Below are positions 12,264-21,378 of a stretch of DNA of 39,911 nucleotides, one piece after another. The position numbers and the translations under genes were made by a program. Numbering within the stretch: the stretch's first letter is position 1; every line of letters starts with the position of its first letter. The stretch covers positions 1-39,911 of the forward strand of contig DAOSWM010000025.1 in NCBI GenBank assembly GCA_035380045.1, given 5' to 3'. Source of the DNA: Tenuifilaceae bacterium (lineage in GTDB: Bacteria; Bacteroidota; Bacteroidia; Bacteroidales; Tenuifilaceae). The notes beneath the pieces were generated by a model. The model searched no databases. It worked only from the letters and a program-made list of their open reading frames with translations, and was not told where the DNA came from.

Positions 12264-13103
12264 ATGATAATTACAGATCAAGATCTTCAATATTTTGTAA
12301 GTGCTCTTAAGAACTCCTCTAAGTACGACTTTAGCGAATACTCGGACAAATCGCTCAAGCGTAGGCTTCAGAAGGTGATGGAAGATTTTAATTTAGATAT
12401 CACAGGGCTTATCTCAGCCATACGTAGCGATGCCGATTTTTCAGAAAAAATTGTAAAAGAAATTACCGTAAATACTACTGAACTTTTTCGGGATCCACAG
12501 GTTTGGCACACCCTTCGGTCTCGCATTCTTCCTCGTTTTAAAAACAACAAAACCATTAACATATGGCATGCCGGGTGTTCAACCGGCCAGGAGGTCTATT
12601 CAATGATGATACTCCTAAATGAGATGGGAATGTTTGATAAAGCAAAGATTTTTGCCTCAGATCTAAATACCGATGTCCTCGATGCAGCCAAGAAGGGGCT
12701 GTATAAATACCGTTTCAATATTGGGTATCTTGATAATTTCGACAAGGTTATTAAACAAAACCCATTAAACTACGAAGAGTTTAATGACGTTCCATACGAA
12801 ACTTATTTTGATATTGACAAGGTTAGGGACTCCATTTCCATGAAAAAGTTTTTAACTGAAAAACCCATATTCAGGAAGCATGACTTGGTGAAGGACGGGA
12901 ATCTCTTTTTTGCCAAATTTGACCTTATTCTATGTAGAAACGTAATAATTTATTTTAACTACTCGTTGCAGAACAAAGTATTCGAACTCTTCCATTCAAA
13001 CCTATACAATAAGGGCGTTTTGTTACTAGGTATGCACGAAACAATACTGGGGCCATGGGCCGCTAAGTTCGACAAGATGGGGCAAGCTTACATTAAAAAA
13101 TAA
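12264..13103 (+). CDS. cheR: CheR-type protein-glutamate O-methyltransferase (standalone)
   Basis: It has the CheR N-terminal helical domain and the SAM-binding signature: FFRDPQVW...INIWHAGCSTGQEVYSMMILL...IFASDLN...LILCRNVIIYF. Confidence 0.8.
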   Translation: MIITDQDLQYFVSALKNSSKYDFSEYSDKSLKRRLQKVMEDFNLDITGLISAIRSDADFSEKIVKEITVNTTELFRDPQVWHTLRSRILPRFKNNKTINIWHAGCSTGQEVYSMMILLNEMGMFDKAKIFASDLNTDVLDAAKKGLYKYRFNIGYLDNFDKVIKQNPLNYEEFNDVPYETYFDIDKVRDSISMKKFLTEKPIFRKHDLVKDGNLFFAKFDLILCRNVIIYFNYSLQNKVFELFHSNLYNKGVLLLGMHETILGPWAAKFDKMGQAYIKK

Positions 13104-13129
13104 TTTTGCAGTTATAATCAGTTTTAGGC

Positions 13130-15502
13130 ATGAAGTTTTTAAAAAATATGAGCATCAAACAAAGAATTCAACTTTTGGTTGTCACCCTAATGGTTGTACT
13201 CTTTTCTGCTTCTGCCATTATAGCATACTACATGCTCCGCAAACAATCACAAATATCCACTGATAAGCAAACGATGCTATACCTCGGTCAGCTGGAAAAA
13301 ATTATAACCCTCATTAACGAAAACACTGAACCTGGCTTCGATCACAACGACTACATCCAAATTAAACCATACTTCACCCAAAACCCCTACTTTAAAACCG
13401 ATTACCCTTTTCTAATCGACATTTCTGGCAACTATCTGATTCATCTATACAAAGAAGGTCAGAAATTCCCGCGTGAGCAACTAAAAGAAATGCTCACTAA
13501 CCCTGAAAAAAAAGGTGTAATTATATACGAAGACTATAAGAACGCCCAGCAACAGATCGTTTCACTTTATTTCAAAAAAATTGAACCCTACAACTCTTTC
13601 GTTGCGATTCCCATAAATCATGATGAGGCGTTCTCCCACCTGCAAAACAGCATACTAATTCTTTTAGCCATTGCGATAGCATGCACCCTCATTTCCTTTT
13701 TTATTATCAGGAGAACCTTAAACCCACTGATAAAGGCAATTAACACAGTAAGTAAAAGTCTTAACCTCCTGTCAACAGGACAGGTAGCTCCAAAGATTAA
13801 TTATTTACAAAATGACGAGGTTGGACAAATTGTTCTACCGCTCAATTCTCTTATTGATGGGGTTCAACGAACAACGCTCTTTGCAAAAAGAATAGGTAAA
13901 AGTGAACTCGATGTTGAATTCATCACCATGGGGGAAAATGATGAGCTTGGTAATTCGTTGCTTGAGCTGAAAAACAGCATGCTAAAAACTGCAAAGGAAA
14001 ACGAACAACGAAAACTTCAGGATGAGCAACGGAACTGGAGTACTTCTGGAATTGCAAAGTTTGGTGATATCCTGCGTCAAAACAACAACAACCTTCAGTT
14101 TCTCTCCGACAGTGTTATTCAAAATTTAGTTAACTATCTCAACGCAAACCAGGGAGGCCTATTTATTCTTAACGAATCCGATAACACCCCATACCTTGAA
14201 CTCATTTCGGCTTTCGCATTCAACCGTAAAAAGGTTAAAACAAAAACTATCCATGTAGGAGAGGGACTCGTAGGGAATTGTGCAATAGAAAAACAAACTA
14301 TTTACCTAAAAGAAATTCCCGAAGATTACATTGAGATTACGTCTGGGCTTGGTGATGCTCCTCCAAGTTCGCTTCTCATTGTACCCCTCAAGCTTGAAGA
14401 TAAAATTTTTGGAGTAGTTGAACTTGCTTCATTTAATGAGTTTCAACCTCATGAAATTGAATTCGTTGAAATAATAGGAGAAAGCATCGCCTCTACCCTC
14501 TCCGCTGTGAAAAATAACATCCGAACCAATGAGCTCCTAGAACAATCGCAGCAACAACGTGAAGAAATGGCTGCTCAGGAGGAGGAAATGCGGCAGAACA
14601 TGGAGGAAATGCAAGCCACGCAGGAAGAGATGGCACGCAAAACCCTCGAGATGGAAGGTATGACATCTGCCATTAATGAATCGTTAGCTTTTGCGGAGCT
14701 AACCGAGGAGGGAAACTTCATAATGGCGAATCCAAACTTTTTAAGCCTAACAGGTTACGGAAAAACAGAAATTGAGAATAAACGTATCAACGACTTCATT
14801 CACTCCGACGAGGCTGCGATCTTCAACAAAAACTGGAAGAACATTGTGATAGGCGAACCCTTTAAGGGAACGCTCAAGTGGGTGAACCATAGCGAAGAGG
14901 AATTGTATGTGCTTGCAAGCATAAGTCCTGCCTTCGATGAAAGCGGACGTATTTTTAAAATATTCTTCCTGGGTCAGGATGTTAGCGAATCAAAAAAAAT
15001 TGAGTTGAAAGCCCAAGCGCAAGCCGAAGAGATTGAAAAGAGTTTAATGGAACTCGAGATGGAACAGGAACTATCCAAGCAACGCGAAGAGGAAATGGAT
15101 GCTTTGCTTCAAGCCCTCGACACCACCTGCCTTGTAACACAATTTGAACCCGATGGTCGCATTACATACATCAACAATAAAAACGTTGAAACACTTGGCG
15201 ATCCAAAAAGCAAAATTGAAGGGAAACTCCATTCCGAACTTGATTTTCAAGCTAAAAATAATCCCCAAGAGTACAAACAGTTCTGGGAAGACTTGCTTCT
15301 GGGCATTCAAAAAACCAGAGAATTTTCACTCAACGTTAGCGGAAAAAATATCTGGATTTCAGAACACTACACCCCTATTAAAAATACAGAAGGGAAAGTT
15401 ATTAAAATTATTAACATCGGAATCGACATATCTGCCTCGAAAGACACGGAAAAAAAATTGAGGGAAACTGTTAACTCCTTAAAAAAGGACAAGGAAAAGT
15501 AA
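13130..15502 (+). CDS. Membrane sensor protein: TM-periplasmic region-TM-HAMP-GAF-coiled coil-PAS-coiled coil-PAS, with no recognisable output domain
   Basis: A TM helix, a ~150-aa extracytoplasmic region and a second TM helix ([19 protein letters not shown]) are followed by a HAMP-like segment. The GAF motif is [33 protein letters not shown]. The EE-heptad helix [24 protein letters not shown] resembles MCP methylation helices. Two PAS-like blocks follow. No kinase, cyclase or phosphatase domain is present. Confidence 0.7.
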   Translation: [790 protein letters not shown]

Positions 15503-20403: not shown

Positions 20404-20979
20404 ATGGACAAAAAGAATGTTAAAGGGTTTCTTGAGTTTGTATACGACTTCTACAAGTCGATGAAAGCTCATGAAATCACCCTTGTGTACGAGGGTGAAA
20501 TAACCCACCAAATCACCAAGGCCTTTACCTCCCTCACTGAGTCGAACATGGCGAAGGAGGAAGAGTCTAACTCTGTGCAGAAGAAAGTCTTTCATGTTAT
20601 GGTAGAGTGCCTGCAAAACATTAGCAAGCACGCCGACAGCTTCGGCTCCGATGACTTTCTGTTCGCCGGACGAGGAATCTTCATGGTTAGTAAAGGTGAA
20701 ATTGAGTACCATGTTACTACCGGGAACGTGATTGAGAACTCAAAGATTGATGAACTCACAAAAATTCTCGACCACATCAACACCCTGGATAAGGACGGTT
20801 TGAAAGAACTGTACAAAACACAGATGCGAGAAGGACGTCTTTCGGAGAAAGGTGGAGCAGGACTTGGATTTATTGATATTGCTAGGAAAACTGGCCGTAA
20901 ACTCGAGTACCACTTCCTCCCCATCGACGAAGAAACCCACTTCTTTATTTTAACCTCAACCATATCCAGAAACGAGTAA
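20404..20979 (+). CDS. GHKL-type Ser/Thr protein kinase, SiaB/RsbW/SpoIIAB-like partner-switch kinase
   Basis: The N-box-like VECLQNISKHA and the G2-box EKGGAGLGFIDIARKTG of HATPase_c anti-sigma-factor-type kinases are present. The 191-aa size and position directly after a PP2C phosphatase gene fit this role. Confidence 0.6.
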   Translation: MDKKNVKGFLEFVYDFYKSMKAHEITLVYEGEITHQITKAFTSLTESNMAKEEESNSVQKKVFHVMVECLQNISKHADSFGSDDFLFAGRGIFMVSKGEIEYHVTTGNVIENSKIDELTKILDHINTLDKDGLKELYKTQMREGRLSEKGGAGLGFIDIARKTGRKLEYHFLPIDEETHFFILTSTISRNE

Positions 20980-20994
20980 GAAAATACAAGAGCT

Positions 20995-21378
20995 ATGGAA
21001 ACCATAAAGATCATGGGTACCGACGATACCCCAACTGTTATTCTCGATGCTGATAACGATATCTTTGAGATATCAGGCCGCTCTCTCCCCGAGGATGTAA
21101 CCGCATTCTACGAGCCCATACTTAACTGGCTCGACGATTATGCCAACTCGCCTAATGCGAAAACCGTGTTTATATTTAAACTCGTTTACTTTAACACAGC
21201 GAGCTCCAAGCTTCTACTTGACATTCTTATGAAGCTTGAGCAAATGCATGAAGATGGCAAGGAGGTATTAATCCGATGGTTCTACCCTGAAGATGATGAA
21301 GATATGCAGGAAGCTGGTGAGGAGTATGCTGATATTGTTGATATCCCATTTGAGCAGGTAAGCTACACGCTAACCTAA
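20995..21378 (+). CDS. DUF1987/SiaC-like small regulatory phosphoprotein, the probable kinase/phosphatase substrate
   Basis: It is 127 aa. The pattern DDTPTVILDADNDIFEISGRSLPEDVTAFYEPILNWLDDY ... VYFNTASSKLL ... WFYPEDDEDMQEAGEEY matches the SiaC-family layout as remembered, including the Ser/Thr-containing YFNT(A/S)SS segment. The family assignment is from recall, not a search. Confidence 0.55.
   Translation: METIKIMGTDDTPTVILDADNDIFEISGRSLPEDVTAFYEPILNWLDDYANSPNAKTVFIFKLVYFNTASSKLLLDILMKLEQMHEDGKEVLIRWFYPEDDEDMQEAGEEYADIVDIPFEQVSYTLT

Follow-up and report, generated by a model that had tools for sequence, protein, structure and literature searches.

A conserved Bacteroidales gene cluster joining CheR/CheB-type enzymes to a SiaABC-type partner switch and carrying a candidate methyl-accepting helix

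The gene cluster and its boundaries

The window analysed here, a stretch of 39,911 nucleotides from a Tenuifilaceae bacterium (Bacteroidales; assembly GCA_035380045.1, contig DAOSWM010000025.1), contains eleven co-directional genes, g1 to g11, on the forward strand between positions 12264 and 25931, separated by gaps of 3–53 bp (Table 1). A sequence-only reading of this DNA had described the first eight as a unit, and all eight open reading frames were found exactly where it placed them, on the forward strand. With starts set by the longest open reading frames, the gaps from g1 to g8 are 26, 27, 6, 12, 3, 38 and 15 bp; the start that had been thought to overlap a preceding stop does not do so, and of the proposed spacing of 3–41 bp the lower value stands while the upper belongs to the g8–g9 gap. 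The largest unannotated internal gap in the window is ~470 bp.

Table 1. Features of the cluster and its flanks.
Feature	Position	Strand	Length	Description	Basis
Upstream hairpin	12117..12136	+	7-bp stem	Terminator-like, weak, between upstream gene g0 and g1	
g1	12264..13103	+	279 aa	Canonical CheR methyltransferase	Pfam CheR_N + CheR, E=6e-38
g2	13130..15502	+		Accessory membrane receptor lacking an output domain	GAF + 2 PAS (Pfam)
g2 helix	14525..14644	+	40 aa	Candidate methyl-accepting helix, residues 466-505	Most conserved g2 stretch
g3	15530..16360	+	276 aa	Degenerate CheR paralog	Pfam CheR, E=2e-19; CheR fold also by PDB profile
g4	16367..16927	+	186 aa	CheB methylesterase/deamidase catalytic domain	Pfam CheB_methylest only, E=2e-48
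g5	16940..17749	+		Small two-TM protein, C-terminal GAF	Weak GAF, E=1.6e-5, below Pfam cutoff
g6	17753..20365	+	870 aa	Transducer	GAF + 2 PAS + SpoIIE (Pfam)
g6 helix	18689..18808	+		Candidate methyl-accepting helix, residues 313-352, TERLLQEAQQMTQELKENEEELRQNAEEMRATHEELEKSN	Post-GAF position
g7	20404..20979	+	191 aa	SiaB-family Ser/Thr protein kinase	NF038262, 178 bits (cutoff 85); Pfam DUF6272
g8	20995..21378	+	127 aa	SiaC/DUF1987 phospho-switch protein	PF09345, 143 bits (cutoff 24.5)
g8 T68 codon	21196-21198	+		Candidate phospho-acceptor	
g9	21420..24509	+	1029 aa	TerB-ABC, ABCG-like half transporter	Domain profiles + TM prediction
g10	24563..25474	+	303 aa	Conserved lipoprotein	Lipobox LLSSC
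g11	25494..25931	+	145 aa	Conserved secreted protein	Signal peptide
Downstream hairpin	25955..25978	+	10-bp stem	Terminator-like, with T-run, 24 bp past g11 stop	

The hairpin that follows g11 is the strongest forward-strand site, and the sole strong forward-strand terminator, between positions 10900 and 26400, and it likely marks the 3' end of the operon; the hairpin ahead of g1 likely forms the 5' boundary of the unit. Region-wide, the total count of terminator-like sites is not above chance. The earlier reading, which stopped at g8 (position 21378) and named no output, could not be maintained, because g9, g10 and g11 are co-conserved and lie upstream of the sole strong terminator.

A relative of g3 is found in 371 species-level genomes, all of them from Bacteroidales or Bacteroidota, and 80 related loci were fetched from these genomes for comparison. 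Gene order is kept in every one of the 80, with median gaps of 4–56 bp, which bears out the expected co-conservation of the first eight genes; since the order recurs despite protein identities that fall to 26–65%, it is conserved beyond chance. The genes g1 and g3 to g11 are all present in 41 of the 80 loci, and the remaining loci end at contig ends. The receptor gene g2 is an optional component: it occurs in 28 of the 41 complete loci, and a clean absence is seen in 22 loci. The transporter gene g9 follows g8 in all 55 loci that reach that far (median gap 38 bp), and g10 and g11 are syntenic in 53. Among open reading frames of at least 120 aa in the ~40-kb window, no MCPsignal, CheA, CheW, receiver or GGDEF domain was found, in agreement with the sequence-only reading that MCP, CheA, CheW, CheY and SiaD are lacking here.

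Enzymes, sensors and switch proteins

In 70 orthologs the SAM motifs of g1 (AGCSTGQEVYS, ASD133 and CRNVIIYF) do not vary, and the protein, which is 63–97% identical across loci, shares 31% identity (E=1e-44) with the CheR of a Brucella RsbK-type cassette. In g4, for which Pfam detects no receiver domain, all 81 sequences share the catalytic triad S10/H37/D130, and identity across loci is 69–95%. The closest plasmid-borne relatives of g4 (38–43% identity) are receiver-less CheBs, with CheR adjoining or fused to CheB in the six loci inspected; identity to classical CheB response regulators is at most 31%. Judged by sequence, both enzymes are intact and look functional, and their invariant catalytic residues, together with identities among the highest in the cluster, argue for purifying selection on their activity. 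The third gene, a paralog of g1 (E=1e-35) that had been read as a divergent CheR, does have a CheR domain, but the position of the SAM ribose-binding Asp is occupied by S, V, T, Y or I in 81 of 81 orthologs, whereas all 70 g1 orthologs have D there. A change is also seen in motif I (CSTGEE to xxSGEE), and the elements RN and an N-terminal EIGIVETRN are conserved. These features suggest that g3 is probably unable to bind SAM canonically and may be no enzyme at all.

Two TM segments are predicted in each of g2, g5 and g6, and the proposed paralogy of their GAF sensors is well founded: the GAF and coil of g2 and g6 are 43% identical (E=2e-54), and the GAF of g5 belongs to the same subfamily as that of g6 (E=8e-17). 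In g2, a member of an extensive family of GAF-(coil-PAS)n receptors that lack an output domain, a TM segment, an outside loop of ~138 aa and a second TM segment are followed by GAF, a helix with heptad-spaced Glu-Glu pairs (the EE-heptad helix) and two PAS domains. The transducer g6 consists of two TM segments, GAF, EE-heptad helix, two PAS domains and a SiaA-type PP2C phosphatase. The small g5, which has an acidic but poorly conserved coil upstream of its GAF and no post-GAF helix, is present in every locus and evolves fast (26–50% identity). The HAMP domains assigned earlier to two of the sensors are not detected by Pfam in either protein (g2, g6) with a threshold as loose as E<=10, whereas profile searches agree with the remaining domain assignments (CheR, receiver-less CheB, GAF, PAS, SpoIIE and DUF1987). 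HAMP is present in many homologs.

The likeness to the P. aeruginosa SiaABC system, whose mechanism and the role of T68 have been described (PMC8457831), extends to all three proteins, in an operon that has no SiaD. The PP2C domain of g6 matches the SiaA structure 6K4E (E=6.5e-36) and keeps the Asp-containing motifs that align to SiaA (SGDF, VDCTGHG, SDGMPDQ, IDDV). The kinase g7, 75–99% identical across loci, matches the SiaB chain 6KKO_A (E=1.8e-13); of its earlier description as a GHKL kinase of SiaB/RsbW type, the SiaB family assignment was confirmed and a Pfam HATPase_c match was not obtained. When g8 is aligned to SiaC (6KKO_C), YFNTAS corresponds to YLNTSS of P. aeruginosa, and the surrounding loop VYFNTASSK, which includes T68, is unchanged in all 62 sequences. 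Downstream, g9 comprises a TerB domain, a conserved linker domain, an ABC ATPase and an ABC-2 permease with six TM segments. Neither g10 nor g11 matches any family in Pfam, NCBIfam or PADLOC.

The post-GAF helix and its relatives

The candidate methyl-accepting helix has a column identity of 0.96 in g2, compared with 0.4–0.6 elsewhere in the protein, and in an AF2 model (pLDDT 90) it is part of one continuous helix of 79 residues (440–518) that runs from GAF to PAS. Its counterpart is likewise the most conserved segment of g6, near-invariant in 75 orthologs, with heptad-spaced pairs Q325E326, E332E333, E339E340 and E346E347 and a stretch, EEMRAT, that corresponds to the classical MCP consensus EExxA(S/T). 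Interchange of E and Q of the MCP type is weak at these sites: at E333, 18 of 76 sequences have Q, and the interchange amounts to only ~1% family-wide. Across 497 copies from 150 diverse proteins, the polar core AQEEE[LM]RQN[ML]EE[LM]xATQEE[ML], within which EExxAT falls, shows 91–96% conservation, a figure biased by the selection of these proteins with the motif profile. Among the top 150 proteins that bear the helix, fusion to CheR or CheB is seen in none. In one helix-PAS protein the helix precedes a genuine MCP signalling domain; the helix is thus a general signalling element whose presence is no proof of methylation.

CheR/CheB adaptation chemistry is rare outside chemotaxis, with one characterised precedent, in Bacillus cereus, where the CheR-type enzyme RsbM methylates the S-helix of RsbK between its GAF and kinase domains; this methylation is needed to repress the pathway from the PP2C RsbY through RsbV/RsbW to sigma-B (PMC4574943). 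The genomic association of RsbK with CheR has also been published (PMC12848376), so the earlier statement that such an architecture had not been described was too strong. In all four alphaproteobacterial cassettes sampled, a CHASE3-GAF-helix-HK-REC protein adjoins a CheR and a receiver-less CheB; the GAF and helix of these proteins and of g6 are homologous (E=7e-26) and align in register, and the g6 helix is likewise in register with the coils of g2 and of the Brucella RsbK-type kinase. It is to the receiver-less CheBs of such cassettes, and not to classical CheBs, that g4 is closest among plasmid-borne relatives. A Methylocystis protein carries, after a CheB-CheR fusion, an EEL-heptad helix that shares this signature, then PAS and HWE_HK, with no GAF. 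When the three CheR/CheB-linked architectures (the eleven-gene cluster, the alphaproteobacterial kinase cassettes and the CheB-CheR fusion) are compared, the EE-heptad helix, placed after GAF or after CheR, is the one element common to them, and the post-GAF helix of g2 and g6 is the likely methylation target. Within the helix family, methylation has been demonstrated for RsbK (PMC4574943) only. The B. cereus system, with RsbK compared here by description, is alike in its CheR-type enzyme, post-GAF helix and PP2C with partner switch; the present operon differs in its directly fused PP2C, its SiaB/SiaC switch, its paired esterase, its degenerate second CheR and its probable exporter output.

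Proposed pathway and competing readings

On the reading to which we give somewhat better than an even chance, the cluster is an eleven-gene operon in which the sensor of a membrane-anchored SiaABC-type partner switch carries a CheR/CheB methylation layer. The proposal that methylation tunes a phospho-partner-switch, already part of the sequence-only reading, remains the best supported and gains a named candidate helix. By analogy with P. aeruginosa SiaABC, T68 of g8 would be phosphorylated by g7 and dephosphorylated by g6. The Glu-Glu pairs on the GAF–PAS helix of g6 would be methylated by g1 and demethylated by g4, as suggested by the parallel with RsbM acting on RsbK, and the g2 helix would be an additional substrate in genomes that have g2. 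Charge neutralisation could make a marginally stable coiled coil pack or rotate differently, which would set the PP2C activity of g6 and hence the phosphorylation state of g8, giving the sensor a gain or memory setting that reverses slowly. As g4 has no receiver domain, any feedback would have to act via conformation-dependent access to the substrate and not via phosphorylation. Having lost the SAM ribose-binding Asp, g3 would most likely bind the helix or serve as its adaptor without catalysing a reaction. Unphosphorylated g8 would bind and regulate the co-transcribed exporter g9, the probable output of the pathway, partnered with the secreted g10 and g11; this regulation is the mechanism's least certain step, the link between g8 and g9 being drawn from conserved adjacency only.

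It is possible, though doubtful, that the pathway holds but the target of g8 is an unlinked diguanylate cyclase, other enzyme or transcription factor, with g9–g11 as cargo or unrelated genes. The neighbours of SiaB/SiaC do vary, being a histidine kinase and a diguanylate cyclase in Azospirillum and a second PP2C with a second SiaC at an Eisenibacter-like locus, with no obvious neighbour in Bernardetia, and no known SiaC-binding motif was identified in g9, whose linker domain has no recognisable fold. The invariable position of g9–g11 after g8 in the loci that reach them (55 and 53), at short gaps, and a strongest terminator that lies past g11 and not past g8 argue for the linked output, as does the proposal that modulation of adjacent proteins is a general role of the DUF1987 family (PMC8457831).

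That CheR and CheB are active on another substrate (g5, g8, the TerB or linker region of g9, g3, or else g2 or g6 at a different acidic segment) appears unlikely. The helix family does occur with no CheR/CheB within 10 kb, in three scattered g2-like receptors of Cytophagales and at a Y_Y_Y-(helix-PAS)n-PP2C-SiaB-SiaC locus, and g5 is universal in the cluster and has its acidic coil; that coil is poorly conserved, however, g8 and g9 have no MCP-like EExxA(S/T) heptads, and the helix is both the element shared by the three architectures and the equivalent of the mapped target region of RsbM (PMC4574943).

We regard it as very improbable that the enzymes serve a conventional MCP/CheA/CheW array encoded elsewhere, their place in the operon being regulatory or historical, given that g1, g3 and g4 are embedded among GAF sensors in 80 of 80 loci at identities down to ~45–65%, that g1 and g4 are closest to non-chemotaxis enzymes associated with histidine kinases, and that the 40 kb hold no array component. 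Bacteroidales are generally non-flagellated, and CheA-based pathways are not a known feature of the order. In favour of such an array are the receiver-less CheBs of the F3 class that work in true chemotaxis in Campylobacterota (PMC9239204) and the helix-PAS protein with a true MCP domain. Finally, a purely structural linker role of the helix, with g1, g3 and g4 as relics or small-molecule enzymes and no protein methylation, is scarcely credible: a key SAM-binding residue is already lost in g3, and long GAF–PAS helices are common in methylation-free sensors such as phytochromes and PDEs, but in g1 and g4, among the best conserved proteins of the cluster, the catalytic residues are invariant in 70–81 orthologs, and solvent-exposed E, R, Q and N of the helix are more than 90% conserved, beyond the needs of a linker.

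Genes, extent and conservation of the cluster

The eight open reading frames that a sequence-only reading had called at 12264-21378 were recovered by an ORF check at those positions, all on the forward strand, and Pfam and NCBIfam HMM searches supported their domain calls almost throughout (see table; genes are numbered g1 to g11 along the strand). The spacing had been described as gaps of 3-41 bp with one start overlapping the preceding stop; the measured gaps from g1 to g8 are 26, 27, 6, 12, 3, 38 and 15 bp, with zero overlap. The unit does not end at g8, where the earlier reading stopped, since three further co-directional genes (g9-g11) follow, and the strongest forward-strand terminator-like hairpin of the region lies 24 bp past g11. 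A weaker one is located between g1 and an upstream outer-membrane-like gene, and a promoter scan, whose sigma-70 consensus is not appropriate for Bacteroidota, gave a site count not above chance. The upstream gene, g0, encodes a signal peptide and ends in ...GYF, as outer-membrane beta-barrels do; it has no family match and is only loosely associated with the cluster, being found upstream of it in about 18 of 80 related loci at 30-80% identity.

Features of the cluster and of other parts of the window
Feature	Position	Strand	Content
Second SiaA-type PP2C	162-3542	+	PP2C (NF038263, E=2.8e-60) fused to Reg_prop/Y_Y_Y beta-propeller sensor
Phosphatase gene	3578-4051	+	low-molecular-weight phosphotyrosine phosphatase
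g0	11217-11987	+	signal peptide protein
Weaker terminator-like hairpin	12117-12136	+
g1	12264-13103	+	CheR_N + CheR
g2	13130-15502	+	GAF + two PAS, without output domain
g3	15530-16360	+	weaker CheR match
g4	16367-16927	+	CheB_methylest only, 186 aa, no receiver
g5	16940-17749	+	weak GAF
g6	17753-20365	+	GAF, two PAS, SpoIIE; PP2C part matches NCBIfam SiaA
g7	20404-20979	+	exceeds curated cutoff of SiaB-family kinase model; Pfam DUF6272
g8	20995-21378	+	SiaC/DUF1987
g9	21420-24509	+	TerB domain, conserved linker, ABC ATPase, ABC-2 permease
g10	24563-25474	+	lipoprotein, 303 aa, no known family
g11	25494-25931	+	secreted protein, 145 aa, no known family
Strongest terminator-like hairpin	25955-25978	+
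435-aa ORF	33883-35190	-	no family match
Radical-SAM gene	35142-36161	-	radical-SAM/SPASM protein
OmpA-family gene	36210-37289	-	OmpA-family coiled-coil protein

The DNA comes from a member of the Tenuifilaceae (Bacteroidales) known through metagenomes. Two transmembrane segments are predicted in each of g2, g5 and g6, and the suspected paralogy of these three GAF sensors is borne out by sequence comparison (43% identity and E=2e-54 between the GAF and coil regions of g2 and g6; E=8e-17 between the GAF domains of g5 and g6). The HAMP domains once ascribed to g2 and g6 gave no Pfam match even at E<=10 with the N-terminal parts alone, and we drop them for the window proteins; HAMP is present in homologs, unlike in g2 and g6 themselves. 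No MCPsignal, CheA, CheW, receiver or GGDEF domain was found in any window ORF of at least 120 aa, which upholds the proposed absence of MCP, CheA, CheW and SiaD, and the unannotated gaps are too small to conceal such a gene. Nor was GGDEF matched among the cluster proteins used in comparing the 80 related loci. The cluster lacks every core chemosensory component save CheR and the CheB catalytic domain.

A profile of g3, scanned against one genome per species, detected relatives in 371 genomes, and the best 80 loci were fetched, all of them from MAGs assigned to Bacteroidales or Bacteroidota, apart from the cultured species Perlabentimonas gracilis. Neighbourhood conservation, a check that the earlier reading had called for, holds: the order g1-(g2)-g3-...-g11 is kept in 80/80 loci as far as the contigs reach, with median intergenic gaps of 4-56 bp, and 41 loci contain g1 and g3-g11 in full. 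The output-less receptor gene g2 is optional, occurring in 28 of the 41 complete loci and being cleanly missing from 22 loci, where the gap from g1 to g3 is about 20 bp; g1 adjoins a sensor gene in all loci compared. Identity across loci ranges over 75-99% for g7, 71-98% for g8, 69-95% for g4, 63-97% for g1, 62-95% for g6, 43-89% for g3, 35-81% for g2 and 26-50% for g5.

The first CheR, g1, retains the canonical SAM motifs, ribose-binding Asp133 included, in 70/70 sequences. Its paralog g3 (E=1e-35) has an altered glycine-rich loop and a ribose-binding position that is never acidic (S, V, T, Y or I in 81/81 sequences), with other positions and a distinctive N-terminus still strongly conserved; on these features g3 is probably a non-catalytic or atypical CheR paralog. 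The Ser10-His37-Asp130 triad of the CheB protein g4 is intact in 81/81 sequences, and its closest relatives in a plasmid collection are receiver-less CheBs (38-43% identity), as against at most 31% for classical CheB response regulators. On a Hymenobacter canadensis plasmid (L093:9953-13017), a CheB catalytic domain that is extended at its C-terminus by a Cys/His-rich stretch is encoded beside a PAS histidine kinase that has a NEEL-type coil at its N-terminus, with no CheR nearby. As comparators the Hymenobacter plasmid CheB loci proved uninformative, their architecture, a CheB-like protein and a PAS histidine kinase without CheR, being a different one.

The last three of the eight genes resemble a SiaABC-type partner switch. 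In its alignment with SiaA structure 6K4E (E=6.5e-36), the C-terminal PP2C domain of g6 keeps the Asp-containing motifs; its score against NF038263 (E=5.5e-50, 170 bits) is under the SiaA equivalog cutoff of 700 because only the PP2C part matches. The kinase g7 had been described as a GHKL protein akin to SiaB and RsbW: membership of the SiaB family stands (NF038262, 178 bits against a cutoff of 85; alignment to SiaB in the SiaB-SiaC co-crystal, 6KKO_A, E=1.8e-13), and the HATPase_c assignment does not. Similarly, g8 aligns to SiaC and scores 143 bits against PF09345 (cutoff 24.5), and 87 bits against the SiaC equivalog, which is below its cutoff of 150. In P. aeruginosa, SiaC is switched off by phosphorylation of T68 (PMC8457831). 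The corresponding T68 of g8 lies in YFNTAS, within a loop, VYFNTASSK, that is invariant in 62/62 orthologs. Judged by these matches, the cluster has the SiaA, SiaB and SiaC features of a SiaABC(D)-type system and lacks SiaD. The window contains a second SiaA-type PP2C, fused to a beta-propeller sensor and followed by a low-molecular-weight phosphotyrosine phosphatase gene; as it has no SiaB or SiaC of its own, it may provide input to the g7/g8 switch, located 17 kb downstream.

The post-GAF helix

Directly after the GAF domain, g2 and g6 share an E/Q-rich segment in the same register, comprising residues 313-352 of g6 (TERLLQEAQQMTQELKENEEELRQNAEEMRATHEELEKSN) and 466-505 of g2. It consists of four [E/Q]E[L/M] triplets at an exact spacing of seven residues and includes EEM(R/Q)AT, the classical MCP methylation consensus, Glu-Glu-x-x-Ala-Ser/Thr. 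The segment is nearly invariant in 75 g6 orthologs and is the most conserved stretch of the fast-evolving g2, with a column identity of 0.96 as compared with 0.4-0.6 elsewhere. An AlphaFold2 model of g2 residues 300-640 (31 homologs, mean pLDDT 90.3) contains one unbroken 79-residue helix, residues 440-518, that bridges the last strand of the GAF domain and the first of the PAS domain, the motif lying midway along it; in the model, this region has the geometry of a signalling helix. A fold search with the GAF-helix-PAS model returned generic GAF/PAS sensors only. Strongly apolar positions are limited to one hydrophobic residue per heptad, with Asn or Thr three residues after each, a pattern suggestive of a marginally stable coiled coil, the packing of which would respond to neutralization of the flanking glutamates. 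We also considered E/Q interchange, as at MCP methylation sites, and set it aside as weak evidence, since it is confined to g6 E333 (Q in 18/76 sequences) and the first pair, and amounts to about 1% family-wide.

A profile of the g2 and g6 helices, searched against 1.84 billion proteins, recovered 3,531 cluster representatives at E<=0.001. Among the best 150 of these, almost all have the same GAF domain followed by 2-9 helix-PAS units, most without an output domain, and none is fused to CheR or CheB, a fusion that turned up only via the plasmid collection. Conservation of the polar core AQEEE[LM]RQN[ML]EE[LM]xATQEE[ML] across 497 helix copies is 91-96%, a figure subject to ascertainment bias as the proteins were picked by the motif profile. 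The output-less receptors form a large Bacteroidota family (P0121-P0388; L086-L088), in which MCP-type sensors (dCache, Cache_3, 4HB_MCP, PilJ, CHASE3, HAMP) precede GAF and one to nine EE-heptad-helix/PAS units; a 1989-aa receptor of Chondrinema litorale has nine matched helix stretches. Like MCP genes, theirs are dispersed around the genome, and JGI annotation labels some of the proteins methyl-accepting chemotaxis proteins.

Three independent links between this helix and CheR or CheB were found elsewhere: alphaproteobacterial cassettes, a Methylocystis fusion, and RsbK/RsbM. The same cassette occurs in four sampled loci, from Brucella, Sphingomonas, Sphingopyxis and Agrobacterium, in the order CHASE3-TM-GAF-helix-HisKA-HATPase-REC, CheR, receiver-less CheB, and a response regulator or histidine kinase. 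Its GAF and helix are homologous to those of g6 (E=7e-26), with the helix in register (LLEETQRQSEELQVQSEELRVSNEELEEQ), and its CheR shares 31% identity with g1 (E=1e-44). In the Methylocystis protein, CheB and CheR are fused directly to a helix that shows this signature, with PAS_10 and HWE_HK after it, and the segment RSTAEELETSKEEL corresponds to RQNAEEMRATHEEL of g6. This single 988-aa protein (CheB_methylest-CheR_N-CheR-EEL-heptad helix-PAS_10-HWE histidine kinase) is encoded on plasmid pSS37A-Re-1 of Methylocystis iwaonis (L096:3783-6749, minus strand), beside a stand-alone second CheB and a PAS-HK-REC protein, with methanobactin genes close by.

Other occurrences of the helix count against this link. 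No CheR or CheB lies within 10 kb of three g2-like Cytophagales receptor genes (Bernardetia, Ohtaekwangia, Rhodocytophaga), which may reflect only the dispersal of receptors, as with MCP genes. An Eisenibacter-like locus (L089), in which a Y_Y_Y-(helix-PAS)n-PP2C gene directly precedes SiaB and SiaC, also has no CheR or CheB within 10 kb, and no ABC genes. In a further protein (P0259, 841 aa, N-terminally truncated), helix-PAS units stand upstream of a genuine HAMP-MCPsignal module with methylation helices of its own. Since the helix occurs both without nearby CheR or CheB and upstream of a true MCPsignal domain, and its E/Q interchange is limited, it is a general signalling element, whose methylation in this operon we infer from motif and context.

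Comparison with known systems

In B. cereus, the target of the CheR-type methyltransferase RsbM is the signalling helix of RsbK, located between its GAF and kinase domains in the layout CHASE3-HAMP-GAF-S-helix-HK-REC, and methylation there is needed to hold the RsbY (PP2C)-RsbV/RsbW-sigma-B pathway off (PMC4574943); the RsbK-RsbM-RsbY-RsbV/RsbW module is taken here from Chen et al. 2012 (Environ Microbiol 14:2788) and Chen et al. 2015 (PMC4574943), and a genomic RsbK-CheR association has been noted (PMC12848376). By analogy, the cluster shares the defining logic of RsbK/RsbM: a membrane GAF sensor followed by a methylatable signalling helix (here a candidate one), a CheR-type gene beside it, and a downstream PP2C controlling a phospho-dependent partner switch, with no MCP, CheA or CheW involved. 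The likeness runs through the sampled alphaproteobacterial RsbK-type CHASE3-GAF-HK proteins that match the g6 GAF and helix, and not through the B. cereus RsbK sequence. The RsbK helix feeds a histidine kinase and receiver that phosphorylate a separate REC-PP2C protein, RsbY, whereas the cluster fuses the PP2C domain to the sensor, with no His-Asp step; Pfam detects no HisKA, HATPase_c or receiver in g2 or g6, and g6 ends in PP2C. Furthermore, the switch is of the SiaB/SiaC type (DUF6272/DUF1987) instead of RsbW/RsbV (GHKL/STAS), the probable output is an ABC exporter instead of a sigma factor, and RsbM is an orphan without esterase, whereas the cluster, from the phylum Bacteroidota, has CheB and a degenerate second CheR, and adds the output-less receptor g2 and the small GAF protein g5. 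The architecture had been thought undescribed; this holds for the exact architecture, of which the literature searched contains no description and nothing relevant beyond RsbK/RsbM, and fails as a claim of categorical newness, the logic being shared with RsbK/RsbM. What is new relative to RsbK/RsbM is the direct PP2C fusion, the DUF6272/DUF1987 switch, the paired esterase, the degenerate CheR and the accessory receptors.

With SiaABCD of Pseudomonas aeruginosa (Chen et al. 2020; Poh et al. 2020, PMC7647112; PMC8457831) the cluster has in common the order PP2C, kinase, DUF1987, and the Thr68 residue in its YxNT context. It differs in having no SiaD or other GGDEF protein, in the GAF-helix-PAS-PAS sensor part of g6, which is unlike that of SiaA, in its CheR/CheB layer and paralogous GAF receptors, and in its candidate downstream target.

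Classical chemosensory pathways, a classification of which was reportedly given by Wuichet and Zhulin in 2010, likewise pair CheR and CheB with intact catalytic residues, as in g1 and g4 (g3 lacks the ribose-binding Asp). On a long helix by the sensor, their MCPs carry EE pairs at heptad spacing that include EExxA(S/T), here candidate sites, and they resemble the g2-like receptors in their MCP-type periplasmic sensor domains and dispersed genes. In contrast, the 39.9-kb window has no MCPsignal, CheA, CheW or CheY, and Ser/Thr phosphatase and kinase chemistry replaces the His-Asp phosphorelay. Since the g4 CheB has no receiver, a CheA-to-CheB feedback loop cannot exist; receiver-less CheB is also found in some genuine chemotaxis classes (PMC9239204).

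The proteobacterial plasmid cassettes, which are uncharacterised, share with the cluster the GAF subfamily and the post-GAF EE-heptad helix (the Methylocystis fusion has the helix and no GAF), the closest CheB (38-43%), a related CheR (31%) and a neighbourhood without CheA, CheW or MCP. They differ in their histidine kinase phosphorelay output, in their single CheR, and in having no SiaB/SiaC and no ABC exporter.

A possible adaptation mechanism and its output

Bacterial chemotaxis is the textbook case in which reversible glutamate methylation acts as a memory device; outside MCP arrays this chemistry is, to our knowledge, almost never considered, with RsbK/RsbM as the one characterised exception. 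Having a methyltransferase and no esterase, RsbK/RsbM cannot show reversible use of this chemistry elsewhere. The operon described here pairs an intact CheR and an intact CheB on a non-MCP sensor, ties them directly to a Ser/Thr phosphatase partner switch, and is found across hundreds of Bacteroidales species, P. gracilis among them, to judge from the g3 relatives in 371 genomes, with gene order checked in the best 80.

On the basis of homology, motif conservation and gene context, the following roles in methylation, phosphotransfer and export can be proposed. By homology to SiaABC, g7 would phosphorylate T68 of g8 and g6 would dephosphorylate it. Methyl groups would be added by g1, and removed by g4, on the EE pairs of the g6 helix and, where g2 is present, of the g2 helix, and by analogy to RsbM/RsbK the methylation state of the helix would set PP2C activity. 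Phospho-feedback from a kinase is impossible for a g4 without a receiver, so any adaptation would have to operate via conformation-dependent substrate availability. The degenerate CheR, g3, is probably a helix binder without catalysis, and g2 and g5 probably modulate g6 via the shared GAF and helix, which is speculative.

A wider reading, which we put forward tentatively and regard as unlikely, is that these genes belong to a CheA/CheW-independent, chemosensory-style pathway of Bacteroidota. Dispersed receptors, each with a periplasmic Cache/4HB/CHASE3 sensor, HAMP, GAF and one to nine methylatable helix-PAS units, would signal to a central GAF-helix-PAS-PP2C transducer and from there to the SiaB/SiaC switch; CheR and the receiver-less CheB, working on the EE-heptad helices that these proteins share, would bring about true sensory adaptation, the degenerate CheR would be an adaptor, and the TerB-ABC effector would be an exporter, for example of surface or matrix material affecting gliding, adhesion or aggregation. 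If true, such a pathway would be a second, evolutionarily independent methylation-adaptation core of a multi-receptor network.

The operon also yields a precise, short candidate substrate motif, which marks, in addition, thousands of uncharacterised output-less Bacteroidota receptors as well as the CheR/CheB-linked histidine-kinase cassettes and CheB-CheR fusion kinases of Proteobacteria. Methylation of the helix, if confirmed, would define a general "methyl-accepting signalling helix" module and offer a first functional handle on signalling in Bacteroidota, where sensing is still poorly understood.

As the output, the TerB-ABC exporter g9, together with g10 and g11, is the best candidate. In related loci g9 always adjoins the switch genes together with g10 and g11, SiaB/SiaC modules elsewhere having other neighbours; it is a candidate non-cyclase target for the SiaC/DUF1987 switch family. 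Searches of g9 with Pfam, PDB profiles and an AF2 model identified no SiaC-binding element. Between its TerB domain and ABC ATPase, residues 145-268 (window 21852-22223) are highly conserved and apparently beta-rich, with 36 invariant columns in 17 orthologs, and the SiaC-like protein may dock there. The idea that this region is an FHA-like phospho-Thr-binding domain found no support (no PDB match at E<=10 for the 17-ortholog profile, no Pfam match, pLDDT below 50 in a single-sequence AF2 model), and we set aside a role in anti-phage defence prompted by TerB, for which PADLOC gives generic ABC-ATPase similarity only. Searches of Pfam, NCBIfam and PADLOC gave no hit for g10 or g11, and in 53 related loci the two genes keep synteny with the ABC exporter. 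Elsewhere in the window, on the reverse strand at 33883-37289, a radical-SAM/SPASM gene is flanked by a 435-aa ORF without family match and by a gene for an OmpA-family protein containing a coiled-coil region.
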